DNA of 64,000 nt from a virus. Shown here in pieces: positions 68-58,053 of this stretch. Within the stretch, counting starts at the first letter, position 1, and every line of letters begins with the position of its first letter. The position numbers and the translations under genes were made by a program. The stretch lies in the IMG/VR virus record IMGVR_UViG_3300025528_000383. One strand, written 5' to 3'. The notes below the pieces were generated by a model. The model ran no database searches, was not told the DNA's origin, and was given only the letters and a program-made list of their open reading frames with translations.

Positions 68-96
68 TTGACTTTTCCTATAGTCAATGGTATTCT
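68..96 (+). promoter_or_regulatory. sigmaA promoter TTGACT-17-TATTCT with operator copy TTTTCCTATAGTCAAT (73-88) in the spacer
   Basis: Read directly; TG extended -10. Confidence 0.75.
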
Positions 97-110
97 AAAA
101 TAGAAATCAT

Positions 111-1145
111 TTGAAGGCCGGAGTGAATGGAATGAACTTAAATTTAGACGATAACATTGTGCTGATTTCTCATACGGATTTGGACGGTTATGGGAGCGAG
201 ATTGTTTTGCGTGCTCTCGGATACAACCCGACCGTGTACCACCTTGAAAACCAAGAAGTAGATGGTTTTCTTCGCCGATATTTGGATGATATGTTGGACC
301 ACAAGAAAGAGATTCCCGCAGCTCTCTTCCTCACCGACCTTTCTCCAAATGAAGAGAATGCGGAAAAATTAAACTTGCTGCATCGTCAAGGGTTAAAGCA
401 CATGTATTTGTTCGATCATCACCAGACCGCTCTTTCCTTGAATCAATACTCTTGGGCGTTAGTCCTGCCAGAAAGCAATGACGGTGTGAAACAGTGTGGT
501 ACTTCACTTTTTTACTGCTTCTTGGCGGAAAACATGGGCATCAAGCTGGATGAGTATTCTAAATTGATCCTTGACCGAGTGGTTGAACTCATTCGTCTGT
601 ACGATACATGGGAGTGGGAAAAGGAAGGGGTTCAGGAAGCCAAGGACCTAAACACCTTGTTCTATCTGGAAGGGCCTGACCTATTTATATCAAACCGTCT
701 CGCCCACATCAACGATCGGTCTCTAAAATATGAACATTTTAAAGAACCGTGGCTTCCTCACGAAGGGGATCTCTTAGAAATAGAAAATAATCGAATGGCC
801 CGATACCTAAAGAATAAGGAACAGGAAATGATCACCATTACCGGCTTTTTCACCGATGAATACGGAATCCCCCTAACCGCCGGTGTCGTTCAGGCTGATC
901 AGTATATCAGTGAGCTTGGCCACTATCTTTGCAACACGCACCCGGAAATCGACTTTGCTCTGATGCTGATGCTGACGAAGAACAAAGTGTCTTTCCGAGC
1001 GGTTAAAGAACACATCAACCTCATCCCCATCGTGAAACGTTATGGCGGTGGCGGACATAAGCATGCGGCCGGCTGTGATTTTATCCATCTGGGCAAAGAG
1101 TTCTTGGACGTCCTCTATGATCATGTGAAAATCGAAAAATGTTAG
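111..1145 (+). CDS. DHH/DHHA1 phosphoesterase (NrnB/oligoribonuclease-like)
   Basis: Motifs SHTDLDG, LTDLS, FDHH and C-terminal GGGGHKHAAG; start may be the ATG at 132. Confidence 0.85.
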   Translation: MKAGVNGMNLNLDDNIVLISHTDLDGYGSEIVLRALGYNPTVYHLENQEVDGFLRRYLDDMLDHKKEIPAALFLTDLSPNEENAEKLNLLHRQGLKHMYLFDHHQTALSLNQYSWALVLPESNDGVKQCGTSLFYCFLAENMGIKLDEYSKLILDRVVELIRLYDTWEWEKEGVQEAKDLNTLFYLEGPDLFISNRLAHINDRSLKYEHFKEPWLPHEGDLLEIENNRMARYLKNKEQEMITITGFFTDEYGIPLTAGVVQADQYISELGHYLCNTHPEIDFALMLMLTKNKVSFRAVKEHINLIPIVKRYGGGGHKHAAGCDFIHLGKEFLDVLYDHVKIEKC

Positions 1146-1181
1146 AAAAAGCCCGTTATGATTTTCCATAACGGGCTTTGT
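1146..1181 (+). terminator. Intrinsic terminator
   Basis: AAGCCCGTTATG/CATAACGGGCTT stem followed by a T tract. Confidence 0.75.
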
Positions 1182-1301
1182 TTTGTTATAAGAAGTTTTT
1201 TTTATATTTCCCTCTCTTATAACACGTTCGAGCATGGCTAAATAATATTTTGAATTTACGATTGCTATGAATCGCCTTTCTCCCTTTTTTGTGTTAAAAT
1301 A

Positions 1302-1315
1302 GGAACAAATGTTTG
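1302..1315 (+). promoter_or_regulatory. LexA (Din/Cheo) box-like site GGAACAAATGTTTG just downstream of -10 TAAAAT
   Basis: Near match to Bacillus GAAC-N4-GTTC; yolD genes are typically SOS-associated. Confidence 0.6.
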
Positions 1316-1332
1316 CATTGGGTGGTGTCGGG

Positions 1333-2714: not shown

Positions 2715-3422
2715 TCACATCACGGGTTCCGCAGTCACCGGAAGCAGGTCGCCGATATCGACCTTCCCCCGGTGAATCATGTCCACGAAGAGGTTGACGA
2801 TGTCTGGATCGAATTGGGTCCCCCTGCCCTTTCGGAGTTCCACCACCGCTTCCCATACCTTCCGTTTCTTCTGGTAGACCCGGTTGGAGGTCATCGCATC
2901 GAAGGAGTCCGCCACTGCGGCGATGCGTGCGACGAGTGGGATGTCTTCCCCTTTCAGACCAAACGGGTATCCTTTTCCGTCAAAACGTTCATGGTGGTAA
3001 AGCGTGATGGCAAGGATCGTCTCATCCGTGATCTCCAACATGTTTCTCAAGATGTCGTATCCGGCTTTCGGGTGTTGTTTGACGATTTCGTATTCTTCTG
3101 GGGTCAGGCGAGAAGGCTTCGTCAGAATTTCATCGGGGATTCTCCCCTTTCCGATGTCATGGAGCATCCCGCCCATGAACAACGTAAGGCAATCCGACGG
3201 CTTGAATCCGGCCGCCAACCCGATCTCATAGCAATAATACGCCACGTTCCGTGAATGTACATCCTGAAACAGGATGGCTTCGATCCGGTTGTACAAGCCT
3301 TCTTCCGCACCCCTCGCCGGAACCCCGTATTTTCTTCGTTTCCTCCCATTAGGAGGAGACAGAGTTTCCTTCAACAAATTCCGGTAGATGATGTCGAGTT
3401 CTTTTTTCTCTTGTTTGGTCAC
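2715..3422 (-). CDS. Stand-alone HD-GYP phosphodiesterase
   Basis: LHDIGK, HP..GY, HHERFDGKGYP, VADSFDAMT; GTG start at 3422 after GGGGGG. Confidence 0.9.
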   Translation of the reverse strand: MTKQEKKELDIIYRNLLKETLSPPNGRKRRKYGVPARGAEEGLYNRIEAILFQDVHSRNVAYYCYEIGLAAGFKPSDCLTLFMGGMLHDIGKGRIPDEILTKPSRLTPEEYEIVKQHPKAGYDILRNMLEITDETILAITLYHHERFDGKGYPFGLKGEDIPLVARIAAVADSFDAMTSNRVYQKKRKVWEAVVELRKGRGTQFDPDIVNLFVDMIHRGKVDIGDLLPVTAEPVM

Positions 3423-3645: not shown

Positions 3646-3674
3646 ATTTTACCATTGACTATAGGTTAAGACAA
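3646..3674 (-). promoter_or_regulatory. Promoter TTGTCT-17-TAAAAT with operator copy (3654-3669) in the spacer
   Basis: Read on the minus strand. Confidence 0.7.
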
Positions 3675-7897: not shown

Positions 7898-8371
7898 TCA
7901 ACCAGCATTCCGTATACCTCCATTTTCACTATCTTGTTTCAACGGGTTTTCGATACTGTACTTGTCACAAAGAAGCTGGAACACTTGCATGTATCTTTTG
8001 AATCCCTGGTATGATAATGGGGCTTCTAAGCTCCGCACCATCCAAAACAAACATTCTTCCTCTACCAGCCAATACTTGGAATGGATCGGGATTTCTGCAT
8101 ATTTTCTCACTTTTGCCTGCAATAATACTTCATCAACTTCCGCCAAGTTCTGGACACTTTCCAACTGGCCAAGTTTCAACCACAAGATGTGCCATTTCCA
8201 TTCAGGAATTCTGGCTTCATCTGCGATCCGCTTCTGTGTAAGGAGGGTCTTTAAGGCTTTCATCTTCTTTTTGTTAAGTGCTGTGGGTTCTTTTTCCCAG
8301 CTCTTCATCAATATTTTCGCCTTTTGGGAGACCTCCTTTTCTCCGACCTCCAATCCGAACATGCCGAACAT
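7898..8371 (-). CDS. Hypothetical protein
   Basis: RBS GAGGAGG; downstream of an operator-bearing promoter. Confidence 0.65.
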   Translation of the reverse strand: MFGMFGLEVGEKEVSQKAKILMKSWEKEPTALNKKKMKALKTLLTQKRIADEARIPEWKWHILWLKLGQLESVQNLAEVDEVLLQAKVRKYAEIPIHSKYWLVEEECLFWMVRSLEAPLSYQGFKRYMQVFQLLCDKYSIENPLKQDSENGGIRNAG

Positions 8372-8468
8372 ACCTCCTCTTCTATTCTTCTGTATTCTCG
8401 CAAACGATGGACTTTTCCATCAGTCCCCGCAAGGATCATCTTTCCCGTCGATGTTTTCTTGATTTAAT

Positions 8469-8497
8469 TATACAATTGCTTATAGTCAATGGCAATA
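8469..8497 (-). promoter_or_regulatory. Promoter TTGCCA-17-TATAAT with operator copy ATTGCTTATAGTCAAT (8475-8490)
   Basis: Read directly. Confidence 0.75.
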
Positions 8498-8768
8498 AAC
8501 AAAAAACAGAGAGCCCATTTTTGAGCCCTCTGTTTTCGTTGGAGTTGCAATTTTCCAAAGAACATTTAACATTTTGTTCTAAATTTAGTTGATTTTTTCC
8601 CTGTTTTTTAAGCAAGTAAGCGGCTGACTATTGATATTTCGGTTTCCTAATATGAATTATCCTCTATGTAGGGAATGATCAGGATAACCTGTATGAATCT
8701 CTTAATATACTTTATTCTTATGTATTCCTTTGGAATACGTGTATTAACCTGTTTCGTACTAAATATCG

Positions 8769-9305
8769 TCAACGGATGATTTTGTTCTCCCTAACCTTAC
8801 GAAATCGTAGTTCTGCGACTCGGGCGATATATTGGGTGGCAAGATTCTCTAGTTCGTCCAACAAGTCTTCCGGGTTTTTGTATTTCAGGGAGGCTTCCCG
8901 AAATTCCAATGGATGCACGAACGGAGCGTCGATCACGCTGAAAGAATCCAGCTCAATATCGTAGCATCGGTCAGGAACAAGGTTCTGGTTCACCACCCAA
9001 TATTCCCCCGTCACCCACGCATCAAGCACCCAACCGGAGAAATACAGGTGGGCTGGCGGAATAAGGTTAGCCGGATCCACCTTTCGTTCGTCAAATTCGT
9101 ACACTCGGATTCTGTGTGTTTTTTTACAAGTTTCAAGTGCATATCCCCCACCTGGCATGGCACTTAGACAATCCTCGATGCTTTTGGCCACGCAGATTCG
9201 GGGGATATTTCCGTTTTCGCCTTCCATACGCTGTTCCCGATCAGGAATGCGAGGTGTAAAAATCGGGATGACTTGCGAGAAGTCGTACGAGAGATGAAAG
9301 AGCAT
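8769..9305 (-). CDS. Hypothetical protein of a phage/plasmid type (possible ART-like fold)
   Basis: FHLS...FTPRIP...PRICVAKSIEDCL pattern; RBS AAGGAGG. Confidence 0.6.
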   Translation of the reverse strand: MLFHLSYDFSQVIPIFTPRIPDREQRMEGENGNIPRICVAKSIEDCLSAMPGGGYALETCKKTHRIRVYEFDERKVDPANLIPPAHLYFSGWVLDAWVTGEYWVVNQNLVPDRCYDIELDSFSVIDAPFVHPLEFREASLKYKNPEDLLDELENLATQYIARVAELRFRKVRENKIIR

Positions 9306-9725
9306 CTAACCCCCTCCTTTGGTCGGTTTGTTTATCCTACAAACCAGTGGGTGGAAGTATCGCTACAGAGCAATCGGAGAGGTTTCAAGCACAAAAAAAG
9401 ATCCGGATGAAACCGGATCAGAACCACAAGAATAACCATTCCTTTAGCGGCGTATCAAGTCACGACACACCTTTATCCCCCAAATCGAATTACCAAAGGT
9501 AATGAACGGTCTTTTTTTGATAAGAATTGACGAATTTTTGTATTGGGACTTGGTAAAGAACTCATTTGTGGCTGCCTTCGTTGAAGATTATACGGAATGG
9601 AAGTAATTCTCAGAGGACCACATTTGGAAGAGTGAGTTTTGATGGAGCATGGTTTAAACTTTCCCATTGTTATAATTTCGATGGGACCTTGAGTGGCCCC
9701 ATCATCCTTCTTGCGTATGGAATTG

Positions 9726-10436
9726 TCACACGGCAGTTTCCAAGACTTCGCATTCCAGGATGGTCTTTTCGAATTCACCGTTTTTCGATGAATGAGAATA
9801 GATGAGGGCACACCGTTCTTCCACCAACAAGGTGAAGAGGTACCCACAGAGCACCTCTTTGGACATCGGCTCATCATCAATGGCGTCCCATTCAGTTTCA
9901 GTCGGTAAAAGCAGATAACCCTTTTCATGCTGTATCAATTTTTCTTGGTTGATGGGCCGACGATCTGAAGACAATGTGGTGATGACGTCACCAGTTTGGA
10001 AAGGTAGGGATTGTACTTGGCGATAAATCCGATAATAGGCGAGTATCCGTTCCTGTAAATCAAGAAGATAGTCTTCCAAAGATCCCAAATCGGCGATTTT
10101 GGGAATTTGTTTTTTCATTATGGGGAGAAGGCGGATAAGCGTCTCTCTATCCCGGAATGGACCGAGGTATTCCATGCTTGCTTCACGGGATTCCTTCAAA
10201 TATCCGAGGAAGTCCCGTATTTCCTCCAATGTCTGGATCTCCCTTTCGAACGCTTCGAATGTGTCCAATGACGGGTTTCCGAGATCCAGCAAGGCGTAAT
10301 CGCTTTCATCCAAATTAAGCAAGAGATTTGCTTGGATGTTTTGATTCGGCGTGTGAACATTCCAAGCGAGCGTTAGAACATCTTCGTTCCCCAACTTTTT
10401 CAAAGGATCGGTTGGTATAACTCCCACTTTTACCAC
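9726..10436 (-). CDS. Hypothetical protein
   Basis: RBS AAGGAAG, GTG start, 236 aa. Confidence 0.65.
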   Translation of the reverse strand: MVKVGVIPTDPLKKLGNEDVLTLAWNVHTPNQNIQANLLLNLDESDYALLDLGNPSLDTFEAFEREIQTLEEIRDFLGYLKESREASMEYLGPFRDRETLIRLLPIMKKQIPKIADLGSLEDYLLDLQERILAYYRIYRQVQSLPFQTGDVITTLSSDRRPINQEKLIQHEKGYLLLPTETEWDAIDDEPMSKEVLCGYLFTLLVEERCALIYSHSSKNGEFEKTILECEVLETAV

Positions 10437-10510
10437 TCTTCCTTCTTATATTTTTTTATAAAGCATTTTGAAAAAGAGGGTAACAAATCTCTTATATGAG
10501 ATTTTCACTA

Positions 10511-10539
10511 TTATACATCGCCCATTTCCTATGGTCAAT
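10511..10539 (-). promoter_or_regulatory. Promoter TTGACC-17-TATAAT; operator copy 10524-10539 contains the -35
   Basis: Read directly. Confidence 0.75.
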
Positions 10540-10611
10540 AACACCGGAACGGCCCCACTTCTCGCAATTATTAGGCCTTTCTCCCTACCTCCATAAAATC
10601 GACAGGAATTG

Positions 10612-10767
10612 ATAAAAAACCCCAGTTTTTTTGAAGCCTTGACCTTATTTTACACCATGTCCCCATTTTTGAAAAACTGTTTTCGAATGTTTTTATGTTT
10701 GCTACTTTCGACCCATTCCTTGGACTCTGTCCTCTTGGAATCCGACCAAAGTCCTGGACATTTCGTT
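10612..10767 (-). ncRNA. Candidate SOS-inducible small RNA (~155 nt)
   Basis: Lies between a strong LexA-boxed promoter and an AAAAAAC-TGGG-GTTTTTT hairpin; no RBS-supported ORF. Confidence 0.35.
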
Positions 10768-10773
10768 GAGTTT

Positions 10774-10802
10774 AGTATAGAACATATGTTCGTAAATGTC
10801 AA
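10774..10802 (-). promoter_or_regulatory. sigmaA promoter TTGACA-17-TATACT with LexA box AGAACATATGTTCG (10779-10792) in the spacer
   Basis: Near-consensus promoter and consensus Bacillus Din box. Confidence 0.85.
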
Positions 10803-10960
10803 CGCTGTACGGGAAATGATACCTCTCAAAGCCGTCTGGTTTTCGCAGATAGAAACGCTTATTTTCCCAAATTTCCGCACATAGCATGAAAAGATCCTAA
10901 AAAACAGGTGTTTTCCAAGAGAAAACATAATTGTTTCTAATGTTAATAGTTTCCATAAAA

Positions 10961-11005
10961 ATTGACTAAATTCAAATTGACTTTAGGCAATCGGTCTTGT
11001 AGAAT
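10961..11005 (+). promoter_or_regulatory. xre promoter TTGACT-17-TAGAAT with tandem operator copies (10961-10976, 10976-10991)
   Basis: ATTGACTAAATTCAAA and ATTGACTTTAGGCAAT. Confidence 0.75.
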
Positions 11006-11113
11006 TGGGGTGATAAAGGCGATTAAGGTAAAAAAAAGATTAGGAAAGAGACAATAGGGTTGAATAGGGGACATGTTGAAATGGTTGAGCAATTTGTTTG
11101 AGGGGGAGAAAAA

Positions 11114-11485
11114 ATGTTTCCAGAAAAACTGGACATTCCAAGAATGGTACGGACAGAAAGAGAAAAGAGATTCATGACCTATGCTGACGTAGCAAAGGGG
11201 GTAGGAGTTTCCGCTTCCTACATTTACCGATTGGAGAAGGGAATGCGGAAAAAGCCCTCATTTGATGTACTGGCACGTATTATTGAATTTTTTGGCCTCA
11301 CAGATCGGGATTTAAGACAGTACATTGATGGTGATATTTCTGAACCCCCTATTCTTGGAATCCAACAAGAGTTGTTGGATTTTGCTAAAGAGATGGATAC
11401 AAACAGCATGGCAGAAGTCTCAAAATTATTGGATATGGTTCGGGAGTACCAGAACAGCGTCCGGAAGGTTTCCTCACTACAGTAA
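11114..11485 (+). CDS. XRE-family HTH transcriptional regulator
   Basis: MTYADVAKGVGVSASYIYRLEKG...PSFDVLARI. Confidence 0.9.
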   Translation: MFPEKLDIPRMVRTEREKRFMTYADVAKGVGVSASYIYRLEKGMRKKPSFDVLARIIEFFGLTDRDLRQYIDGDISEPPILGIQQELLDFAKEMDTNSMAEVSKLLDMVREYQNSVRKVSSLQ

Positions 11486-11496
11486 GAAAGCACAAA

Positions 11497-11537
11497 AAAA
11501 GGCTAAGGGAGTTTGATTTCCTTAGCCTTTTTTTTCG
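11497..11537. terminator. Bidirectional terminator
   Basis: AAAAAAAGGCTAAGG...CCTTAGCCTTTTTTT. Confidence 0.8.
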
Positions 11538-11741
11538 TTCGGTGGTTGCGTTTCCGGCCTTTGGCCCGATCTTCGATAGGACGAGGCATTTTGCGGATTT
11601 TTCGTTGGTATCTTGACTTTCTCTCGAAGGATTCATAGAGATCTTCGTAATCTACCATAAGCCTTTTCCCCTTTATTTTGGAGTTATCTTATGGTAGATA
11701 AATCCTTTTGGTTTATTCCGGATTTTCCGTTTCAGCCTGTC

Positions 11742-12320
11742 CTATCTCTTCCGCCGGTCTTCGCAAACTGGGAATGGCACCACATTTTCAGGATCTTCTT
11801 TTTTGCTTTTGGGGACCGAATCCGTTTTTCCTCTATCCTCCCCCTTTTTCTTCAGATATTCACACGGGATAAACAAATCGAATCCAACCACCACCTGACC
11901 GGCATCATTAACGATCCAGTAATCCCCCGATTCCGGCTCCTTCTTGACCGGGTAAACCCTACAAGGCGTGAAACTTTTCCCGTCGCCGGCAGCCATCTCC
12001 AATCCATCCGAACAAAAAACGACGTGGGTGGCCTCATCCATTGGGCAGACTTCGTATCCTTGGGTGTCCGGAGCCGACTCGTTCCAGTGTCGAGTGACCG
12101 CTAAATAATAGTCCTTCTCTGGGATCTGTCCAACAAAACATAGGTTCTCTTTTTCTTTACAGAAATTGATATCCTCTGTAATCAGAGCCATCCGCCCTTC
12201 TCTGTCTGTTTCCCGAACCTTCCCAACCGAACGGAGTTCGTTTCCGTTCCGATAGGTCCAAACCGCATCGACCACGACCAAACGGCCAGACCATTCCCAG
12301 ATTTGCCCCTTTTGGTACAT
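11742..12320 (-). CDS. Hypothetical protein (start revised to MYQKGQ)
   Basis: The longer ORF start lies upstream of the promoter. Confidence 0.6.
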   Translation of the reverse strand: MYQKGQIWEWSGRLVVVDAVWTYRNGNELRSVGKVRETDREGRMALITEDINFCKEKENLCFVGQIPEKDYYLAVTRHWNESAPDTQGYEVCPMDEATHVVFCSDGLEMAAGDGKSFTPCRVYPVKKEPESGDYWIVNDAGQVVVGFDLFIPCEYLKKKGEDRGKTDSVPKSKKEDPENVVPFPVCEDRRKR

Positions 12321-12354
12321 GCTTGATCCCTCTTCCACTTGTTTTCTTATACTC

Positions 12355-12384
12355 ATTCTAATATGGGTATGTACTATAGTCAAA
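12355..12384 (-). promoter_or_regulatory. Promoter TTGACT-17-TAGAAT; operator copy 12369-12384
   Basis: Read directly. Confidence 0.75.
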
Positions 12385-12462
12385 GGTAGATCGCCACTTG
12401 TTCCCTGGATGGCTAACGAAACAAATATAAAATGAAAGAAAAAAAGAGAGCCGTTCTGGCTC

Positions 12463-12918
12463 TCAAATAACGAAAGCAAGTTGTTCATACTTTTTACCGT
12501 TATACGTAAACGGTTCACCGAACAATTTGTATTTAGTCTCTCTTTCTAATTTGTTTTCCTGAATCGTCATCTCACAGCGTTTTGAGAACGTAGGAACTAA
12601 ATGTTCCATGAAACGATTCAGGAAAGTTCGGACCATCGCCGGATGTGACCCTTCCTCCACTTCCCGGATCACATCTTGCATGAGATATAAGAGGTCGAGC
12701 TTGTGGTTTGGGACGAGTAGATCATACAACTTATCCCAAGAAAATTGCTCTTGGTATACCATCCCCCCATCTAAATCAAGACGTACAAATGCTCCATCAG
12801 CCTTCCTTTCAAGGACAAGTCTCTTCTGACTTCCCTTATCTTTCCATCTGTAATCCAGAGTACCGTTGAATGCTTCCAACAATAATTTCATGAACCTTCT
12901 GAACCCAACACCCCACAT
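12463..12918 (-). CDS. Hypothetical protein
   Basis: RBS AAGGAG. Confidence 0.55.
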   Translation of the reverse strand: MWGVGFRRFMKLLLEAFNGTLDYRWKDKGSQKRLVLERKADGAFVRLDLDGGMVYQEQFSWDKLYDLLVPNHKLDLLYLMQDVIREVEEGSHPAMVRTFLNRFMEHLVPTFSKRCEMTIQENKLERETKYKLFGEPFTYNGKKYEQLAFVI

Positions 12919-13066
12919 TTTACTTATCCTTCTCCTTTCATACCTTAATCCTGTTCGATCCAAATAAAGCGTTTTTCTTTATACCTGTGTTTTTACGTTC
13001 ATCCCATTGTACAAATCCGAGTCGCGTTTTATAACGATATAAAAAAAGGCTGCGATCTCGGCAGCC

Positions 13067-13390
13067 TTATAAATCGACGATTCGCAAAATGCGGACAACC
13101 CGATTTTCCTCGATTTCCCGTTTTGTCCGTTCGATCGCCATCCTTTCCTTCTGGGTTGCTTCCCGGATGACCTTCACGTCATCTTTGGTAATGAAGATCC
13201 CATCCGGTAAAGCAAAGTAGGCCTTCCCATTCGTATACTGATAGCACATCCCGACAAACGTCCGATTCTGAACTTGAAAAAGAAAACATTGGTTGACCGG
13301 GAAATCCGGTCGCTTTTCTTCCTCATGCAGCTCTTCTGTCACCGGCTCGACCAGTTCCGGCTTTCTCGAACGTTTGAATAAACGAAACAT
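13067..13390 (-). CDS. Hypothetical protein
   Basis: RBS AAGGAGG before MFRLFK. Confidence 0.6.
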   Translation of the reverse strand: MFRLFKRSRKPELVEPVTEELHEEEKRPDFPVNQCFLFQVQNRTFVGMCYQYTNGKAYFALPDGIFITKDDVKVIREATQKERMAIERTKREIEENRVVRILRIVDL

Positions 13391-13513
13391 CGTTTTAATC
13401 CTCCTTCCATCGTTTTTTGCCATTATCTATAGATAATATAGATTGATCCATATCCTTTACTTCCTTCATCGTGGATGGAGTCTGTCGAAGAAAAAAAGAG
13501 ACCCACAAGGGTC

Positions 13514-14107
13514 TCAAACAACATGAGTAAAATTCGGGCACTGCCGGGCGAGATCCAAAACATCTCGAATCGAAATCCGAGTGGTTGTATAGGGCCGATG
13601 GTTGTTGCAGTGGCACAGCCCCAAGCCCAATTCTTCGCTGTTGTAACAAGTCAATTCCCGGCGGTAAAACCCCCCTTCGATACTGCCGAAAATTTCATCA
13701 ACTGAAACCCGCTCTCCATCATTGTTTTTGATCCATTCGAGAACAAGTTGGTCTCTCTCAACTTGTTCCAGAATGAACCGATCCCTCTCCGTCAAGAGAG
13801 AGCGGGTCTTTTCGTCAAGGCGGTCAACAAATCGTTCAAATTTTTTTTCCTCATATTTTTCACGACTGATGACCTTCTCTACCTCGATGACCCCAAAGAG
13901 TTCAAACCTCGGTAACTCGTTCATTTCTTCCGGTTCCATATCGAACAACATCCGATAAAGTACCGGCGACGGGATCGCTTCCCACTTTTCTCCAGACTCC
14001 ATCACAACAAGATCGAAATGGAATACGTCTGCCTCGACATAGATCAGACGATCGTAATTCTCCATCCTTAAACGGTTCACCCATGCTTCATTTTTCTTTT
14101 TCAACAT
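13514..14107 (-). CDS. Hypothetical protein
   Basis: RBS GGGAGG before MLKKKNE. Confidence 0.6.
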   Translation of the reverse strand: MLKKKNEAWVNRLRMENYDRLIYVEADVFHFDLVVMESGEKWEAIPSPVLYRMLFDMEPEEMNELPRFELFGVIEVEKVISREKYEEKKFERFVDRLDEKTRSLLTERDRFILEQVERDQLVLEWIKNNDGERVSVDEIFGSIEGGFYRRELTCYNSEELGLGLCHCNNHRPYTTTRISIRDVLDLARQCPNFTHVV

Positions 14108-14245
14108 AAATATCCTCCCTTTGCAAATAAAAATTGACTTGGTCAATTCCTTTTTTAACATTCCTTTTATCTTAAGGGATTTCGCGAAAAAAAATAACAG
14201 GACCGATATGATCCTGTTACAAAGAGTCCTTTCCAGTACCACCGA

Positions 14246-14947
14246 TTAAGTGATGGGAGTTTGATGTTTGACAGCCATCCGAAAGAATACAGGGGCTGGT
14301 TCGAGCCCGACGGCGAGTTTGGCGTAACCATCCGCTAGCTCGTTGAACTCATTCCCAGTGTGGGCGGTAACTTTCCGGAATTCCACACGCATCGTGGGGT
14401 TTTCCCGGAAAAACCGTTGCATCCAATCGTAGTAGGTTTTGGAATAGGCCGTCTTCCTCCCCCATTCGCCTGTGGCGTGCTTACCAACGCCCTCGTAGTC
14501 GTGGTGGATGACGACGTGTGTTTCTCCCGCCTTTTTGGCGTACAGGAGAGCTTGCATCGCTCCAAGCAGTTCGCCGCCCACCTGGAACATCTCCACCGCT
14601 TCCGGGTTTTTCCCACTCCCTCGATCTGTGTGAACGACCTTTCCGTCTTTCACGCAGACGAGGCCGAAACCATAATTCTGGATGGCTTTGTTGTAACTGC
14701 CATCAACGAAACAGTGAAGCGTTTCAGGTTCGAGCTCTGTCCCGCTTATGTTTCCTCCTTCATTCAGGGCAAGGTAGCGTTCCGCCTCTTCTCTCGTCTT
14801 GAAACCTTTGTAAACAGCTCCGGCGACCCCTTTGATGAAGGGCTCCCCCTCGCTCCAAGGTTTTTCGAGAATGAGATTTTCGACCGGATTTCCCGTTTGG
14901 GGATCCATACCCTTCTTAATGGCGTACACCTTTTTCATCTTAATCAC
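14246..14947 (-). CDS. rnhA: RNase HI with N-terminal viroplasmin/hybrid-binding domain
   Basis: YAIKKG...W...YKGFKTREEAE; FVDGS, GGEL, HDYEG, NELAD. Confidence 0.85.
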   Translation of the reverse strand: MIKMKKVYAIKKGMDPQTGNPVENLILEKPWSEGEPFIKGVAGAVYKGFKTREEAERYLALNEGGNISGTELEPETLHCFVDGSYNKAIQNYGFGLVCVKDGKVVHTDRGSGKNPEAVEMFQVGGELLGAMQALLYAKKAGETHVVIHHDYEGVGKHATGEWGRKTAYSKTYYDWMQRFFRENPTMRVEFRKVTAHTGNEFNELADGYAKLAVGLEPAPVFFRMAVKHQTPIT

Positions 14948-15133
14948 AGCCTTTCTGATCGATTTTTGTCATTTCATTTCCATTGGTTGCCCAATTCCTG
15001 ACTTGTTTTGTTCCTTTTATTCTAGAAATTCCACTATCCCTCATAACCTTTCAGACTTCCCATACCGATTAAATCGACATACCGATTAGTAGAATACAAG
15101 AAACTGAAACGGTGTACGAAGGAGGCTTTTGCC

Positions 15134-15667
15134 ATGTGGAAACGCCTGAAAGCGAAACTGAAGGGGCGGAAAGGATTTGGCTCCATCGAGATCGCAATCT
15201 GTTCGCTCATCATCCTTATGATGATTGGCGGTTTGGCCGATATGATTCAAATCATGCAGAAAATCGACACCGTCAGCCAGACCACAGGGTATGTTGCCCG
15301 AACCATCCAAAAACAAGGCGGTGTGCGAACAGTACGAATCCAGAACTTTTACGGCAAGTACACGACTACGCCCGTCTTATACAACAACGTGAAGGATATG
15401 ATGGCGTCAAACGGGATACCAGAAGAGGATTGGAAGTTGTATATCGCTGTCGGAGACAAAACTTATTCGATCACACCGTCTACTTCCGTTCCGCTCGTCA
15501 ATTACGGTTACCGCATGAAGGTCATCTTGAAAGTCGATTATCGCTGGGCAATCTTGAGCAACATGATCCCGATTGACTTAAAAGCGACCAAGGATTCCGT
15601 CCGGGAAGTCCTCTCCGGTTATCAAATCCGGAATGGAGACGGAATGGGAACCGATCTTTCTTTGTAA
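15134..15667 (+). CDS. TadE/pseudopilin-like membrane protein
   Basis: Basic leader, G|FGSIE type IV prepilin-like motif, hydrophobic helix. Confidence 0.55.
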   Translation: MWKRLKAKLKGRKGFGSIEIAICSLIILMMIGGLADMIQIMQKIDTVSQTTGYVARTIQKQGGVRTVRIQNFYGKYTTTPVLYNNVKDMMASNGIPEEDWKLYIAVGDKTYSITPSTSVPLVNYGYRMKVILKVDYRWAILSNMIPIDLKATKDSVREVLSGYQIRNGDGMGTDLSL

Positions 15668-17107: not shown

Positions 17108-17216
17108 CCCATCACCCTCTGTTCCCAGAAGAGTTCTCATATTGTGTATCCCCACACATGATCAAAAATCATTCAAAAGAGAAGCAGCCCCATTTGCAGA
17201 GGGACTGCTTCTCTTT

Positions 17217-20018: not shown

Positions 20019-20041
20019 CCCTCCTTCATATCTCATTTACC

Positions 20042-46716: not shown

Positions 46717-46746
46717 AACATATCATTACATTAACCTATAGTCAAA
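46717..46746 (-). promoter_or_regulatory. herA promoter TTGACT-17-TATGTT; operator copy 46731-46746
   Basis: Read directly. Confidence 0.65.
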
Positions 46747-48445: not shown

Positions 48446-49102
48446 TTAAACCAACCGGCGGGATTGCGTTGTGCCGGTTTCATCCTTTTCCAACTCATAG
48501 GCACAGTCGGCCAGGGCGGGAAGGTAACGTTTCTCATGGGTTACAATGATCGCCTGTTTACCGGAATAGTCGATGATTTCCTTGATGGCGTGGGCGGCTT
48601 TTTCCGCATATTCCTCGGAAACGAATTTGGTCGGTTCATCAAGAAAATACGGGGTTTTGTTGTCTCCTCCGACCAGAAATCCAGTGGCGAGGAATGTGGC
48701 AAGCGAGACCAAATCCCGGATGCCGCCTCCTTCGTCGTTCGGCGAAATGCGGTTTTCTTGCCCGTTGTATGCTGTAATAATATCGAGGTCGGCAACCGGA
48801 ACGCCCGCCCGGTGATCTAATTCGATGTCTACCCGCAGGCTGTCCCCCATGACCATCTGAAGGGCGGAGGAAGCTGTTTCAGCGAGAATCTGTTTGCCGT
48901 TTTTCCGAGCTTCGTCGGAAGCTCTCTCAAGTACTTCCTTCATGATCAGCAGGTTTTCCTGTTCCTGTTCTGTTTCGGCCAGTTCCTGCTCCTTTTCCGC
49001 TTTCTGTTTGGCATACAGATCGTAGGCCGCCCTATCCTTCGTATAGCGGGTTTTGACTCGTTCAAGTTTTCTTTCCAATTGGTCTCGTGTCATCTTCCTC
49101 AC
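48446..49102 (-). CDS. C-terminal half of an SbcC/Rad50-like ABC ATPase
   Basis: Coiled coil then EGGG signature, FLDEP Walker B, IVTHE; no Walker A. Confidence 0.75.
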   Translation of the reverse strand: MRKMTRDQLERKLERVKTRYTKDRAAYDLYAKQKAEKEQELAETEQEQENLLIMKEVLERASDEARKNGKQILAETASSALQMVMGDSLRVDIELDHRAGVPVADLDIITAYNGQENRISPNDEGGGIRDLVSLATFLATGFLVGGDNKTPYFLDEPTKFVSEEYAEKAAHAIKEIIDYSGKQAIIVTHEKRYLPALADCAYELEKDETGTTQSRRLV

Positions 49103-49515
49103 TCCTTCCTCGCTCGATTAGTGTGTCCTTTCAGCTTTTCCAAGTCGATTTCGACGACCAAAGCGGTGGTCACCATCCCGAACGGGAACACCACGTCCAT
49201 CTTACCCACCACCGTCCCGGAACAGGCTGGTCGGTCAGAGTCCAAAAGATCATACAACCGGTCGTTTGTGATCCCTTCCGGAGGAGTGTAATTCGGGTTG
49301 GCAGCCACATAACCGATAAATGTCCATTTTCCCGTCTTTTTGTGGCGGACCAACACCGACAGGGCTTTGTCGTCCACCTGGTTTTGATAATCTTTCTTGA
49401 TAAAGACCCTGGTCCCAATCGGACAAGCCTCCAGCGGCATATCACGCGAGACCACCGACACCACCACTTTGCGGGCGATATCCGTCTTGGCCGGGCTTTT
49501 AAGGGTCGCAGTCAT
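49099..49515 (-). CDS. Stand-alone HIRAN-like protein
   Basis: GTRVFIKKD..NQVDDKALSV...IGYV. Confidence 0.65.
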   Translation of the reverse strand: MTATLKSPAKTDIARKVVVSVVSRDMPLEACPIGTRVFIKKDYQNQVDDKALSVLVRHKKTGKWTFIGYVAANPNYTPPEGITNDRLYDLLDSDRPACSGTVVGKMDVVFPFGMVTTALVVEIDLEKLKGHTNRARKE

Positions 49516-49678: not shown

Positions 49679-49694
49679 ATTGTTTATAGTCAAT
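49679..49694 (-). promoter_or_regulatory. Operator copy ATTGTTTATAGTCAAT downstream of promoter TTTACG-17-TATAAT
   Basis: Read directly. Confidence 0.7.
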
Positions 49695-50665: not shown

Positions 50666-52027
50666 CAATACTTAGCCAGAAGACTCCCACTTCTATAAGT
50701 GGGAGATGAATGGCGTCTTTTGTATATGTTTCGTTAGCATCATACGAACATATGTGCTACAATGAAATTGCAGAATCTTCAATATAAGGAGGTGTTTTGC
50801 CACATGAAACAGTACAAGGCGTTTCGTTTCTGCATCTATCCTAATAAAGAGCAGGAAATCCTCATTTCCAAAACCTTCGGGTGTTGCCGTTTTGTATATA
50901 ACCATTTCCTTGCTTTGTGGCAAAACACCTATCAATCTGTGAAAAAAGGATTCACCTACAACCAATGTGCGAAAGAATTGCCTAAGTTAAAGAAAACGTA
51001 TCCATGGTTAAAAGAAATAGACAGCATCGCTTTACAGTCATCTTTAAAAGATTTAGCGGACGCATATGACAGGTTTTTTAAAAAACAAAATGGATATCCA
51101 AAATTTAAGAGTAAAAAGAATCCAGTACAAAGCTATACCACCAAGATGGTCAATAACAACATTGAAATCATAGGAAACCGTATAAAGCTCCCTAAATTGG
51201 GGACAGTCCGTTTTGCCAAATCCCGTGAGGTGGATGGAAAAATCATTAAAGCTACTATCCGAAGAAATCCATCAGGGAGATATTTCATTTCTATTGTAGC
51301 GGAAGTAGATATAAATCCTTTCCCTTCCACTGGTTCAGCAGTTGGTATTGATATGGGATTGATTGATTTTGTTATTGCCAGTAATGGAGAAAGGTTTCCC
51401 CATATACGCAGTTTCAAAAGATTAGAAGCCAAACTCGCAAAGGAACAACGCATTCTTGCACGCAGAAGGGAACAAGCTATTAAGGATAATAAGCCATTGC
51501 ATCTTGCCAAGAATTATCAAAAACAAAAGATAAAAGTCGCCAAAATCTATGAAAAAATGGCTAATATACGAAATGATTATTTTCATAAGCTCTCCACCTA
51601 TCTGGTCAAGAGCCACGACTTGATAGGTGTTGAGTCCCTCCATGTGAAAAACATGTTGAAGAATCATCATTTAGCCAAGTCCATCCAGGATGCGAGCTGG
51701 CACAAATTTATAGAGATGCTTAAATACAAAGCGGAATGGTACGGAAAGAAAGTCATTGAAGTGGATGCGTTCTTTCCGAGCAGTCAGCTATGTTCCGTTT
51801 GCGGAGCGAAAAACCAGCAGGTAAAAGATTTAAGCATCCGTGAATGGACGTGTTCTGTATGCGGTAGCCACCATGACAGGGATATCAATTCCGCAATTAA
51901 TATAAAGAATGAAGCGTTAAAAATATATCAAAGAACCGTGGGAACCATGGGGATAGCCTACTGAATTAGGGTTCGTTAGAACCCTCTACGTAGGAATCCC
52001 CCACTTCTATAAGTGGGGGTAGTTCAA
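50666..52027 (+). mobile_element. IS200/IS605-family element, tnpB only (IS1341-like), inserted 3' of TTTAT
   Basis: Matching subterminal hairpins CCCACTT-CTAT-AAGTGGG (50684-50705, 51998-52019); right end GAAT guide with TCAA terminus; left guide AAGA at +15..18 compatible with TTAT; AT-rich. Confidence 0.85.
50804..51964 (+). CDS. tnpB: TnpB RNA-guided endonuclease
   Basis: N-terminal HTH; RuvC GIDMG, ESL, DRDINSA; CSVC...CSVC zinc ribbon. Confidence 0.95.
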   Translation: MKQYKAFRFCIYPNKEQEILISKTFGCCRFVYNHFLALWQNTYQSVKKGFTYNQCAKELPKLKKTYPWLKEIDSIALQSSLKDLADAYDRFFKKQNGYPKFKSKKNPVQSYTTKMVNNNIEIIGNRIKLPKLGTVRFAKSREVDGKIIKATIRRNPSGRYFISIVAEVDINPFPSTGSAVGIDMGLIDFVIASNGERFPHIRSFKRLEAKLAKEQRILARRREQAIKDNKPLHLAKNYQKQKIKVAKIYEKMANIRNDYFHKLSTYLVKSHDLIGVESLHVKNMLKNHHLAKSIQDASWHKFIEMLKYKAEWYGKKVIEVDAFFPSSQLCSVCGAKNQQVKDLSIREWTCSVCGSHHDRDINSAINIKNEALKIYQRTVGTMGIAY

Positions 52028-54244: not shown

Positions 54245-54553
54245 CTAATGAATAAACGAGATGAATCCGCCATTGCTACTTGGAATCGGAATGATTGTGA
54301 TCCCCTGGTAATTCAAAGGCATGGGGTCATCCCCCTGCTTCAGTTCAGATTGCCCATTCTTTGAAGATGGCTTACCTGAAGAACGTTCCCCCTTATCAAA
54401 ACTCATATCGTCGAATGTCTCGTTCATGTATACTTGATATTTTTCTGTCTTCTCTATTATTTTGTCTTTGCTTTTCTCAAAGAAGATAAAACTACCACTC
54501 AAAAGCAACAGGGAAGTCAGAAAGCATGGAATAACTTTAAACAGGTCTTTCAT
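54245..54553 (-). CDS. Membrane-anchored hypothetical protein (start revised)
   Basis: The longer ORF start lies in the promoter. Confidence 0.5.
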   Translation of the reverse strand: MKDLFKVIPCFLTSLLLLSGSFIFFEKSKDKIIEKTEKYQVYMNETFDDMSFDKGERSSGKPSSKNGQSELKQGDDPMPLNYQGITIIPIPSSNGGFISFIH

Positions 54554-54572: not shown

Positions 54573-54601
54573 ATCTTATTATCTCTTTTCCTATAGTCAA
54601 T
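54573..54601 (-). promoter_or_regulatory. Promoter TTGACT-16-TAAGAT; operator copy 54586-54601
   Basis: Read directly. Confidence 0.65.
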
Positions 54602-54662: not shown

Positions 54663-55423
54663 TTACATCATCAATCCTTCCCGGTTAATCTCGATCAACA
54701 ACTCGTTCACTTCTTGGTAATTCGGTTTTTCTGGAAGTGAAGATTTTTCATAAGCCTCCTCCAGTTTACGCTCATAGTATTGCAGCATTTCCAAGGCTTC
54801 TTCAAAAGAATACTTTCCGTTCCTACAATCTAAAAGAAGTTCCCGGTTCGGCCGATAAGTCTGATATGTTCCCGTTTCCAAAATTTCGATGGCACTGGTG
54901 AGCAACCTGACACTGTGCATAAACGTTTTAGTGTCATACCCATACAATTGGATTAAGTCCTGCCGTCCTTTACCGGAATCCCGGCTTTTTTTCAATAATT
55001 GGAATAGGCGTACCCGCCAAACTTCCGCCTGATTTGTTTGGAAAGGAATAAGTGTCGATTATCGATGAGTTTTTGACCCAGCGGAGTCACTTTCAACAAA
55101 TCTTCAGAACGCACAAACAAAATTTCGATGTTGTTTGGCACCCCTAACATGGCATCATGGACAAATTTGTTGACATGTAAGATTGTTACATCCACATCAT
55201 CTTTAGTGTTTCTCCAGTTCTTTCCCCCACTCTTGTTGTATTCGTTGAACATTTTCAAACCTAAATAATAGTCGATAGGCGGAATGCACACGCCCTTGTA
55301 ATCTTTATCTGAATGCTCTGTGGCCGTCCCATAAGCATGGCTTCCGGTCACCGCAAGCAAAATGGTTCGATCTTCTAACCAAGGAAAATTTGATTCCTGC
55401 AAAACCTCATGCAAACGCATCAT
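54663..55423 (-). pseudogene. Phage/plasmid-type nucleotidyltransferase split by a single-base frameshift near 55001
   Basis: GSHAYG, SDKDYKGV, NPN-like VPNNIE; second frame has YDTK..MH..RL; one extra C gives ...YAYSQLLKK... Confidence 0.75.
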
Positions 55424-55478
55424 TCTCCCCCTCCTTTCTCTTTCGTCTCAAGTTCTACCCGTAACCTTGTCTAAATCT

Positions 55479-55507
55479 ATCTTATAATACCTTTGTTTAT
55501 AGTCAAT
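55479..55507 (-). promoter_or_regulatory. Promoter TTGACT-16-TAAGAT; operator copy 55492-55507
   Basis: Read directly. Confidence 0.65.
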
Positions 55508-55585
55508 GGTTTTTAAAGAATGAATGTGGAATCATCCACACGAAAAAGGAGCGGCTATTGTAGAAGCCGCTCAAGATATTTCTAT

Positions 55586-57970
55586 TCAAAAAGTCCGCTC
55601 ATTTTCCTGAAGAAATTTTGGGTTGGGATATTCCAACACATGGAGAACCGTTTCCCAACGAATCTTTTCCATCGCTTCACCGAACGCCTCGAAAGCGAGA
55701 CGACTGTATTCGTCGATCGGCTTGACCTGCTTGTAGCCGGCGTACCGCACCGCATCTCGCAGGGCATCCAGTGTAACGAGGTGATCTTGCCAGATGCGAT
55801 CTACAGTCTGGAGCAGGAAGGTACGGAAATGCTCTTCCAAATGACCTTCACGGATGAGTTCCGTCTGTTGAATAGCCTTTTCCTGGATCTTCTCTTTCAC
55901 AAATTCCGTCACCTCGTCCAGACTGTCTAGATCCGGTTCGATCGGGATAGGTTCTACACCGATTAGGCGAAGCACTCGCTCCAAGCGGGCTTTAACTTCT
56001 TTTTCACCCTCTCCACCGTCTGCTTCCGACCAGGCCAGGGCCACTTCTTCCCATTCCTTGGTGAGGACTTCCTCCACCATTTTGCGGAGTTCTCCCACGA
56101 TGTCAAAATTCGGTTCCAGGATTTCATCCCGTTGCTTGTACACGATCGCTCGTTGTTCGTGATCAATGGCATCGAATTCGATCGTTTGTTTGCGGATTTC
56201 GAAATGACTGCCTTCCAGCCGTTCCTGAGCGGAATGGATTGCATTCAACAGAATTTTGAGGTTAATCGGCTCATCTTCATCTATATTCAAAAATTCCAGC
56301 CGCTTCTTGATATTTTTCGGAGCGAAGATACGGAGTAGGTCGTCATCAAATGACAGATAGAACTGACTCATCCCAGGATCCCCTTGGCGTCCGGCCCGGC
56401 CGATCAGTTGGTTGTCGATTCGCCGGTTTGCCGCTCGTTCGGTTCCGATGACCTTTAAACCCCCGAGCTCTTTCACTCCTTCACCGAGTTTAATATCTGT
56501 GCCTCGGCCGGCCATGTTGGTGGCGATGGTAACCGCACCCTTTTGCCCAGCTTGAGCAACGATAGCCGCCTCCTTAGCGTGGTTTTTCGCATTCAAAACC
56601 ACATGCGGAATGCCTTCTGCATCGAGCATCTGGGAAAGCTGTTCGGATTTTTCGATGGAACTTGTTCCGACGAGCACCGGTTGCCCCTTTTTGTGGCACT
56701 CACGGATGTCCTTCACAATCGCTCGCAGCTTGGCTTCACGGGTCAGGTAGAGCTGATCGGGAAGGTCTTTCCGAATAACCGGTTTATTGGTGGGGATCGT
56801 CACCACATCAAGACCGTAGATGTCCTTGAACTCCTCGGCGGCGGTGGCGGCCGTTCCGGTCATTCCTGCCAGCTTCTCGTAGAGAAGGAAAAAGTTTTGA
56901 TAGGTAATGGAAGCGAGCGTCTTAGATTCCTTCCGAATCTGTACGCCTTCTTTCGCCTCCAACGCTTGATGGAGGCCGTAGGAATACCGCCGGCCTTCGG
57001 AAATTCGACCCGTTCCCTCGTCAATAATCTTAACTTGGTTTTGGGTCAGGATATAGTCTTTGTCCCTTTTCATGATGTAGTGGGCTTGAAGGGCCTTGTC
57101 GATGTGAAAACGCAACTCGGCGTTTTCCGGGTCGGAAATATTGTTCACCCGGAACATCTCCTCGATTTTCCGCACCCCTTCATCCGTCAAGAGAACCGCA
57201 CGGGCTTCCTCGTCGATGGTGAAGTCTTTTCCTTTCCTCAGTTTCCTTACACAAAGATCCGCCAAGTGATACCATACGCTTGGTTCTTCTCCAGCCCCAG
57301 AGATGATCAACGGCGTGCGAGCGTCGTCCAACAGAACACTGTCCACTTCGTCCACGATACAGTAGTGGAGTTCCCTCAACACTTTGTCGTCTTTTGAATA
57401 GACCATGTGATCACGCAAGTAATCAAATCCGACTTCCGAGTTCGTGACGTACACAATATCCGCCCGATAGGCTTCTCGCTTATCATGCGTTTCCATACCC
57501 TCCGTCACCACAGCGGTGGAAAGGCCCAAAAACCCGTACAGCGGAGCGAGTAGGTCATGATCCCGGTTCGCCAGGTATTCGTTCACCGTGACGATATGTA
57601 CCCCTTTGCCAGTGAGGGCGTTCAAGTACGCCGGCAGCGTAGCCACCAACGTCTTCCCTTCCCCGGTAGCCATCTCGGCGATGTCGCCTTCGTGTAGAAC
57701 GATTCCACCTATGACCTGCACAGGATAATGCGTCATGCCGAGGATGCGTTTTGAGGCTTCCCTCACAACTGCATAGGCTTCCGTGAGGAGATCATCCAAT
57801 GTCTCCCCGTTTTCGAGGCGTTGTTTGAATTCCGCCGTTTTAGCGGAGAGTTCCACATCGGAAAGGCGAGCGATCTCCGGCTCCAAGGCCAGCACCCGTT
57901 CCGCCCGTTTTTTCAATCTATTCAAATGGATATCGTTTTCCTTCTTTTTCAGTAGTCCCAAAAGTCCCAT
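55586..57970 (-). CDS. secA: SecA ATPase lacking the C-terminal tail/zinc-binding domain (SecA2-like length)
   Basis: MATGEGKT, VTVNEYLA.RD, DEVDSVL, TNMAGRGTDI, RRIDNQL.GRAGRQGDPG. Confidence 0.93.
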   Translation of the reverse strand: MGLLGLLKKKENDIHLNRLKKRAERVLALEPEIARLSDVELSAKTAEFKQRLENGETLDDLLTEAYAVVREASKRILGMTHYPVQVIGGIVLHEGDIAEMATGEGKTLVATLPAYLNALTGKGVHIVTVNEYLANRDHDLLAPLYGFLGLSTAVVTEGMETHDKREAYRADIVYVTNSEVGFDYLRDHMVYSKDDKVLRELHYCIVDEVDSVLLDDARTPLIISGAGEEPSVWYHLADLCVRKLRKGKDFTIDEEARAVLLTDEGVRKIEEMFRVNNISDPENAELRFHIDKALQAHYIMKRDKDYILTQNQVKIIDEGTGRISEGRRYSYGLHQALEAKEGVQIRKESKTLASITYQNFFLLYEKLAGMTGTAATAAEEFKDIYGLDVVTIPTNKPVIRKDLPDQLYLTREAKLRAIVKDIRECHKKGQPVLVGTSSIEKSEQLSQMLDAEGIPHVVLNAKNHAKEAAIVAQAGQKGAVTIATNMAGRGTDIKLGEGVKELGGLKVIGTERAANRRIDNQLIGRAGRQGDPGMSQFYLSFDDDLLRIFAPKNIKKRLEFLNIDEDEPINLKILLNAIHSAQERLEGSHFEIRKQTIEFDAIDHEQRAIVYKQRDEILEPNFDIVGELRKMVEEVLTKEWEEVALAWSEADGGEGEKEVKARLERVLRLIGVEPIPIEPDLDSLDEVTEFVKEKIQEKAIQQTELIREGHLEEHFRTFLLQTVDRIWQDHLVTLDALRDAVRYAGYKQVKPIDEYSRLAFEAFGEAMEKIRWETVLHVLEYPNPKFLQENERTF

Positions 57971-58023
57971 CTTCGGTCGTCCTTTCACCATGTTTTTGTC
58001 GTGAAGATGGCCTCTTCAGATTC

Positions 58024-58053
58024 ATTCTATAATTTCATTTGTTTATAGTCAAT
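58024..58053 (-). promoter_or_regulatory. secA promoter TTGACT-17-TAGAAT; operator copy 58038-58053
   Basis: Read directly. Confidence 0.75.

Follow-up and report, generated by a model that had tools for sequence, protein, structure and literature searches.

What is the function of a 16-bp sequence that recurs 20 times in the promoter regions of a 64,000-nucleotide stretch of DNA? The stretch (IMG/VR record IMGVR_UViG_3300025528_000383; its whole length is called the window here) comes from a bioreactor metagenome and belongs to a circular conjugative plasmid of an apparently undescribed Bacillota megaplasmid family. The original prediction, made from the letters of the window, took the repeats for operators of one element-encoded repressor, and named as its best candidate the XRE-type protein encoded at 11114-11485. 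We find the same palindrome at promoters of every related giant plasmid examined, so that a single repressor encoded by the plasmid most likely binds the 16-mer, and it would control a very large set of genes. That repressor is probably an element-encoded, dimeric XRE-family (HTH_3) protein related to Rco of plasmid pLS20, and the likeliest primary binder is encoded outside the window.

All 20 copies of the 16-mer are present in the window at the positions first given. A search with ATTGACTATAGTCAAT, allowing up to three mismatches, gave 16 matches where shuffled sequence predicts 0.18, and ATAGTCAA gave 18 against an expected 1.4; 17 of the latter 18 lie on the plus strand, co-oriented with minus-strand transcription. 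Read on the transcribed strand, the operator consensus is ccATTGACTATAGGcAAt, and the form that it takes in this element is ATTGACTATAGGCAAT. As predicted, one half is nearly invariant and the other degenerate: positions 2-9 (TTGACTAT) are kept in 19-20 of the 20 copies, while the second half is weaker and reads A-G-G-c-A-A-t. To judge symmetry we chose sites by TTGACTAT alone, which yielded 29 sites in the 108.5 kb of the replicon examined, and compared the next seven bases with the palindromic partner AGTCAAT; 4.0 of 7 matched on average, against 1.75 by chance (P<5e-5). Because only the left 8-mer was used for selection and the partner half still matches, the dyad symmetry is real and not a by-product of how the sites were chosen. 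The half-site centres of the core, TTGAC-N4-GTCAA, are 9 bp apart, close to the one helical turn expected of the palindromic operators of XRE/Cro-CI systems. Approximately 18 of the 47 promoter-proximal gaps in the window (~40%) hold a copy. The description of the regulon as replicon-wide holds for the 46% of the replicon that the 108.5 kb represents, in which there are 28 sites, and is checkable for that part only.

The same inverted repeat occurs on all six complete relatives. Scanning five of them for the 16-mer, again with up to three mismatches, we counted 125 sites on Bacillus thuringiensis Bt407 plasmid BTB_502p (shuffle expectation 9.6), 68 on a Paenibacillus plasmid (3.6), 56 on a Brevibacillus plasmid (4.8), 144 on a Jeotgalibacillus plasmid (7) and 45 on Clostridium perfringens pJFP838A (11); the sixth, an Aneurinibacillus plasmid, was counted by perfect palindromes and has 11 copies of TTGAC-N4-GTCAA. 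The five scanned relatives have 101, 65, 18, 7 and 2 copies of this perfect form, against 0-3 copies each for TTGAC and GTCAA at other spacers (0-3 and 5-8). On the Bt407 plasmid, 123 of the 125 sites are intergenic or upstream of genes. TTGAC-N4-GTCAA was found 0 times in two control plasmids, BTB_78p, which shares its Bt407 host with BTB_502p, and pXO1. With the motif on every related megaplasmid tested and on neither control, the idea of a large regulon belonging to the element is supported.

How each copy is placed on its promoter is given below by the coordinates and strand of the 16-mer.

73-88, minus strand: TTGACT is the -35, 16 bp from TATAAT, for a gene running off the window's left end; on the plus strand the same site lies in the spacer of TTGACT-17-TATTCT, upstream of the DHH-like gene 111-1145, and is common to these two overlapping divergent promoters.
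3654-3669, plus strand: in the spacer of the minus-strand promoter TTGTCT-17-TAAAAT, upstream of the HD-domain gene 2715-3422.
8475-8490, minus strand: in the spacer of TTGCCA-17-TATAAT, upstream of 7898-8371 and a D12 methyltransferase gene.
10524-10539, minus strand: -35 of TTGACC-17-TATAAT, for 9726-10436.
10961-10976, plus strand: the upstream one of two copies in tandem at the xre promoter, abutting the xre -35 and overlapping the next operator by 1 bp.
10976-10991, plus strand: -35 of the xre promoter, TTGACT-17-TAGAAT, with a leader of ~100 nt to the start codon.
12369-12384, minus strand: -35 of TTGACT-17-TAGAAT, for 11742-12320.
20042-20057, minus strand: second operator before the penicillin-binding protein gene, covering about +8 to +23 relative to the promoter at 20086.
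20086-20101, minus strand: -35 of TTGACT-17-TATCAT, for the class A penicillin-binding protein gene 17217-20036.
23449-23464, minus strand: -35, 16 bp from TACAAT, for the DnaQ-like exonuclease gene 22477-23391.
24499-24514, minus strand: -35, 18 bp from TAAAAT, for 23981-24394.
27558-27573, minus strand: -35, 17 bp from TACAAT, for 26496-27521.
29938-29953, minus strand: -35, 18 bp from a weak -10, TACTGT, for 29406-29880.
33886-33901, minus strand: the best copy in the window, with 1 mismatch; -35, 17 bp from TATAAT, for 33494-33739.
40700-40715, minus strand: -35, 17 bp from TACAAT, for dnaE.
46731-46746, minus strand: -35, 17 bp from TATGTT, for herA.
49679-49694, minus strand: ~13 bp downstream of the -10 of TTTACG-17-TATAAT, upstream of 49099-49515.
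54586-54601, minus strand: -35, 16 bp from TAAGAT, for 54245-54553.
55492-55507, minus strand: -35, 16 bp from TAAGAT, for the RlaP-type nucleotidyltransferase gene 54992-55423.
58038-58053, minus strand: -35, 17 bp from TAGAAT, for secA 55586-57991.

In 15-16 of the 20 copies, rather than the 13 first claimed, the TTGACN of the motif is thus the -35 hexamer of a sigma-A-type promoter, 16-18 bp from a TATAAT-like -10; for other TTGAC words in this element the corresponding proportion is 5.6%. A good -10 at this distance accompanies 35-87% of operator sites, as against 6-27% of other TTGAC words. Only rarely does one site have a -10 on both sides, so that bidirectional promoters do not explain the palindrome. 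Two other placements occur. In the first, the -35 begins 5 bp before the 16-mer, which falls in the spacer (73 with respect to its plus-strand promoter, 3654, 8475, and two sites outside the window); in the second, the site starts shortly after the -10 (49679, 71515 outside the window, and the relaxase promoter of one relative). Two promoters have a pair of operators: that of the penicillin-binding protein gene has one operator on its -35 and another at about +8 to +23, and that of xre has one on its -35 and another abutting it, the tandem pair already noted in the original prediction. These three placements relative to the -35 and -10, together with the dyad symmetry and the perfect palindromes in relatives, indicate that the motif behaves as an operator rather than a core promoter element, and every placement fits steric repression and none activation. 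On the Bt407, Paenibacillus and Brevibacillus plasmids, 14 of 88 pairs of neighbouring operators less than 120 bp apart are 27-31 bp apart centre to centre; such a distance, close to three turns of the helix, is suggestive of cooperative binding.

The genes behind these promoters, identified from Pfam, PHROGs or the Pfam listing of the gene calls, are largely those that had been proposed: DnaE, the DnaQ-like exonuclease, HerA, SecA, the class A penicillin-binding protein, the HD-GYP-type HD domain, the D12 methyltransferase and the RlaP nucleotidyltransferase are all upheld, while the DHH assignment is weak, resting on a DHHA1 match below the Pfam cut-off. Genes for a MoxR-like ATPase and a VWA protein follow herA on the same strand. 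The presence of the motif before replication genes extends to the relatives, in that the dnaE promoter carries it in four of five complete relatives and the promoter of the DnaQ-like exonuclease gene does so on the Bt407, Paenibacillus, Jeotgalibacillus and C. perfringens plasmids. If the 16-mer is the operator of an XRE-family dimer, the protein bound to its TTGAC-N4-GTCAA core, one arm of which is the consensus sigma-A -35 hexamer, would be centred at about -28.5 and, by occupying the -35 box along with the spacer, would keep RNA polymerase out; a smaller number of promoters have the site in the spacer or over the transcription start instead. One protein species could in this way shut or open ~40% of the promoter regions of the window, with dnaE, dnaQ, herA, secA, the penicillin-binding protein gene, the relaxase operon and the gene of its own paralogue among those controlled, and in the larger relatives it would govern more than 100 promoters.

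Which protein binds? The two main candidates are XRE-B, the product of the xre gene of the window, and HTH-A, a longer paralogue of XRE-B.

11114-11485, plus strand: XRE-B, a 123-aa HTH_3 protein and candidate operator-binding protein; its Bt407 counterpart lies at 317.8-318.3 kb.

HTH-A (337 aa; locus L276, 4535-5548) is encoded ~39 kb past the right end of the window. The gene-call listing assigns it PF01381, which its Bt407 orthologue (BTB_RS31475) matches at 2.3e-11, and it is present in all seven elements, this one included. It heads the Tad-pilus locus and is divergent from a conserved gene for a 78-92-aa protein and the relaxase operon; in 7 of 7 elements there is an operator in this divergent intergenic region, and the promoter of the small gene likewise has one in every case. 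The small protein encoded before the relaxase gene (L276 4119-4397; Bt407 484932-485180) has an N-terminal KLTRGTK motif and, judged by eye, may be a ribbon-helix-helix relaxosome accessory protein. The recognition helices of XRE-B (SASYIYRLEKG.RK.P) and HTH-A (SAAYIYRIEKG.RK.P) are nearly identical, and most copies of both proteins have in common the pattern G-x-S-x-S-Y-x-x-R-x-E-x-G/N-x-R, the exceptions being the HTH-A of Bt407 (W03), the XRE-B of Brevibacillus (W01), the XRE-B of the relative W05 and the HTH-A of this element. The alignment of HTH-A to the XRE-B profile is almost complete for the plasmids of Jeotgalibacillus, Paenibacillus and C. perfringens, but is confined to the helix-turn-helix in this element and Bt407. 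From the distribution of HTH-A, the operator in all seven of its control regions and the shared helix, we rank HTH-A first, as the most likely primary binder; XRE-B, a short paralogue of the C-terminal two-thirds of HTH-A, probably reads the same operator as an accessory second regulator. An XRE-type regulator thus remains the most plausible class of binder, as was originally proposed, but the protein at 11114-11485 is no longer its single best candidate.

The closest solved homologue of both proteins is Rco of pLS20 (PDB 8bny), the best PDB match of XRE-B (E 8e-6) and of HTH-A (E 1.6e-8), with the recognition helix SSAYISMLEKGERKRP. Like HTH-A, Rco is a plasmid-encoded XRE-type protein divergent from conjugation genes, with operators overlapping both promoters (PMC9986798); such divergence with an operator in between is seen for HTH-A and not for XRE-B. 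Rco differs in that its operators are direct heptamer repeats arrayed at a single locus and in that it loops DNA by way of a p53-like tetramerisation domain (PMC9986798), whereas the sites here are 14-16-bp inverted repeats, mostly single and dispersed, and form no such direct-repeat array. The XRE-B model, predicted as a five-helix DNA-binding domain with a C-terminal two-helix hairpin (pLDDT 91), has two C-terminal helices and no strand-kink-helix of the p53-like (TetDloop) domain of Rco, and when it was compared with the PDB by Foldseek it gave generic XRE matches only (SinR/SinI, DdrO, ComR and C-proteins), none at E<=0.001.

Several observations weigh against assigning the operator to an HTH-A/XRE-B-type repressor. 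The signature common to the two proteins is close to the generic HTH_3 pattern, and we attribute the operator to them by distribution and gene neighbourhood, not by specificity. A third HTH_3 protein, HTH-C (Bt407 465996-466655), is universal in the five complete plasmids; its recognition helix differs from that of HTH-A and XRE-B, but it is a further possible binder. This element has 0 perfect palindromes, its second half-site being degenerate and position 12 being G instead of the ideal T in 20 of the 29 sites chosen by TTGACTAT, and binding here may perhaps be weaker or asymmetric as a result. Finally, the release on transfer or DNA damage that was first proposed is conjectural: contigs from an RNA library cover operator-controlled genes, which are therefore not evidently silent in the sampled community, although such contigs show presence and not expression level. 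Metatranscriptomic contigs from the same kind of sample cover nearly all of window 8001-28000, with breaks at 8181-8256, 8461-8699, 14126-14154, 15035-15103, 24435-24723 and 24984-25260; two of these (8461-8699 and 24435-24723) contain operator promoters. In a soil variant with ~1% divergence (run X3), 0 changes are listed in eight operators, which is uninformative as only ~1.4 were expected.

Alternatively, XRE-B alone could be the master repressor and HTH-A could do something else, for instance regulate just the neighbouring relaxase and Tad pilus genes. The tandem operator pair on its own promoter, the operator-like sites upstream of the Jeotgalibacillus orthologue, the SinR-like build of the confident model (a DNA-binding domain plus the two-helix hairpin) and a host LexA-box promoter back to back with xre, as in SOS-controlled switches, all speak for such a role. 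However, full-length orthologues of XRE-B are found in three of five complete relatives and are missing from the Paenibacillus and Brevibacillus plasmids with their 68 and 56 operators, and only one of those three has an operator upstream, besides this element; the Bt407, C. perfringens and Brevibacillus copies have none. The protein matches PF01381 (E 1.1e-11), and its family is a modest one: an exhaustive search gave 22 representatives at E<=1e-10, a word-index search of 5.8 billion clustered proteins returned the window's own copy only, and a search of genome contigs for the XRE gave one irrelevant match. We therefore regard XRE-B as sole repressor as unlikely, even though it is the likeliest of the alternatives. 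Upstream of a close XRE-B homologue on a short contig are two weak operator-like sites, separated by 29 bp. The back-to-back promoter is TTGACA-17-TATACT at 10772-10800 (minus strand), with the Gram-positive LexA box CGAACATATGTTC in its spacer, and it appears to produce a short transcript (~10612-10766, minus strand) that ends at a terminator-like hairpin. No sign of pairing between this transcript and the xre leader was seen: the energy was -39 kcal/mol where shuffles averaged -35, and the pair ranked 1781 among 1826 tiles.

One could also envision a host-encoded regulator, conserved across Bacillota, binding the site, with the plasmid promoters plugged into a host circuit. That the half-sites are the same from Bacilli to C. 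perfringens would be easier to understand with a conserved host protein. Against this, 50-170 plasmid copies would titrate a host factor, the motif is absent from BTB_78p in the same Bt407 cell and from pXO1, and its sequence was not found in the microbial literature that could be searched; no Bacillota regulator is known to us to have a TTGAC-N4-GTCAA box. A host regulator thus seems to us improbable, somewhat more so than XRE-B acting alone.

Still less credible is an explanation that dispenses with a dedicated regulator and treats the motif as an extended strong-promoter module, a -35 with its flanks, that has spread within the family. The fixed orientation of the -35 with a good -10 in most copies, and the restriction of invariance to the -35 half in this element, speak for such a module, but the symmetry of the dyad is statistically significant, perfect palindromes number 101 and 65 in two relatives and have a spacer of 4 only, few sites have a -10 on both sides, and copies that lie in a spacer or after a -10 cannot be a -35.

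We give very little weight to the possibility that, in place of a repressor, an activator or the sigma factor encoded by the plasmid itself recognises the site. A sigma-70-family factor of ~200 aa does belong to the family core (41-60% identity across five plasmids) and is present here (L274 4313-4942; Bt407 BTB_502p 499897-500487). However, it is SigK/SigE-like, and sigma factors of that type are not known to use TTGAC and TATAAT promoters; as the motif-bearing promoters have sigma-A boxes, we consider it an unlikely reader. The near-consensus -35 and -10 boxes at 16-18 bp mean that no activator is needed, a single sigma region 4 cannot account for a 14-bp palindrome, and the sites are centred at about -28.5, not at -41.5 as in class II activation.

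Least probable of all is the suggestion that the decayed tyrosine recombinase encoded at 1671-2666 is a repressor like MrpR of SPbeta (PMC10516654), a precedent suggested by its intact frame and its loss of the His of HxxR, the His of LGH and the C-terminal Tyr region, since the three orthologues aligned (Bt407, Paenibacillus and Brevibacillus) keep every catalytic residue, HxxR, LGH and Tyr included, and are ordinary recombinases ~55 aa longer, so that only this element's copy has decayed and a conserved operator cannot depend on a dead enzyme. Its homologues on Bacillales and Clostridium megaplasmids are 31-36% identical to it, the orthologues on operator-bearing relatives are 52-62% identical to one another, and a PDB search gave no sequence match to MrpR.

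The reading that we prefer, an operator of an Rco-related XRE repressor, can be set beside known systems. KorA and KorB of the IncP-1 plasmid RK2 are likewise plasmid repressors that act on short palindromic operators at many replication, transfer and maintenance promoters of one replicon; they differ in their Gram-negative host, in the proteins, which are unrelated (KorA and the ParB-like KorB), in having 7 and 12 sites as opposed to at least 28 to 144 here, and in operators of which the -35 hexamer itself is not a building block. FNR/Dnr-type boxes of the CRP/FNR family, TTGAT-N4-ATCAA, are also inverted repeats of the 5-N4-5 form, with a half-site one base different, but they are activating and centred at about -41.5, in contrast to the operator here, centred at about -28.5 on promoters that already have consensus boxes; the class II arrangement, a centre at about -41.5 with a weak -35, was not found, and the scan of core proteins turned up none of CRP/FNR type. 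The original prediction offered two analogues. The first, Reg576 of Bacillus pumilus p576, is alike in function, being one conjugative-plasmid repressor at several dispersed promoters, its own included (PMC6294495), and a proposal of transient expression after transfer has been made for it (PMC6294495). The analogy fails in protein class and motif: Reg576 is a ribbon-helix-helix protein on dual direct TTATCCC repeats at four promoters, its operator heptamers lying upstream of the -35 or near the ribosome-binding site (PMC6294495). The second, MrpR (YopR) with its 15-bp SPBRE element, is similar in that one master repressor acts on about ten promoter regions of one mobile element (PMC10516654). 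MrpR, however, has a recombinase fold, while the candidate binders here are XRE-type; a recombinase fold stripped of its catalytic residues, as in MrpR, is not what the aligned family recombinases have.

The plasmid that carries these operators was assembled three times with different start points (233,751, 233,703 and 233,797 bp). Both ends of the European Nucleotide Archive assembly (ERZ795071 NODE_16; the replicon is also JGI Ga0557493_022675), as placed by loci L002 and L218, fall inside the window, with an offset equal to the size of that assembly minus 55 bp, which indicates a circle of ~233.7 kb. The window encodes, in addition to DnaE, the DnaQ-like exonuclease, HerA, the MoxR-VWA pair, SecA and the class A penicillin-binding protein, cell-wall hydrolases and parts of a type IV secretion system. 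Beyond it, in sequence reached by exact-protein look-ups along the replicon (L218, L219 and L274-L276), are VirB4, PrgI, two primases, a single-stranded DNA-binding protein, gyrase, the sigma factor, the Tad/Flp pilus locus and a Replic_Relax relaxase. The family includes BTB_502p, with whose 322-407 kb region the window is syntenic, and pJFP838A; its members carry a type IV secretion system, a Tad/Flp pilus, a Replic_Relax relaxase and their own DnaE, DnaQ, gyrase, primases, single-stranded DNA-binding protein and sigma factor, and 86 proteins form a core common to five complete plasmids. Searching with the relaxase gave 255 protein clusters, many of them on 230-740-kb contigs, from which we take the family to be widespread. 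Megablast against plasmids and phages found no close DNA relative, a search of viral and metagenome contigs for DnaE gave genes at 23-39% identity from unrelated contigs only, none of them close, and no relevant literature on the plasmid family came up in searches; BTB_502p and pJFP838A themselves have been published only as new plasmids lacking known relatives (PMC3569317, PMC4747519). Two further genes of the window may be mentioned. An IS605-family TnpB/OrfB gene (50762-51964) has a 58% identical homologue on the Brevibacillus megaplasmid. A 184-aa protein with a MazF/PemK-like toxin domain (31684-32238) is kept in all five complete relatives and thus belongs to the core rather than to the accessory genes.

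Taken at its widest, the finding suggests, as a possibility that we advance tentatively, that a family of 230-740-kb conjugative megaplasmids, ranging from Bacilli to Clostridia, runs most of its expression through one master operator made of two back-to-back -35 boxes, read by long and short Rco-like paralogues as a switch. Global repressor-operator circuits of plasmids are already known, and what is unusual here is the scale and the broad distribution; if true, the regulon, at more than 100 promoters, would exceed every other single-operator regulon known from plasmids, and we know of no plasmid repressor-operator circuit, KorA/KorB, Rco and Reg576 included, of this scale or of this -35-palindrome design. 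The motif also offers an easy way to recognise a large group of Bacillota megaplasmids by sequence and maps the transcription units of plasmids on which ~70% of the genes are hypothetical. With its 125 sites, BTB_502p makes the regulator, its signal and the idea of cost-silencing or zygotic induction directly testable in Bt407.

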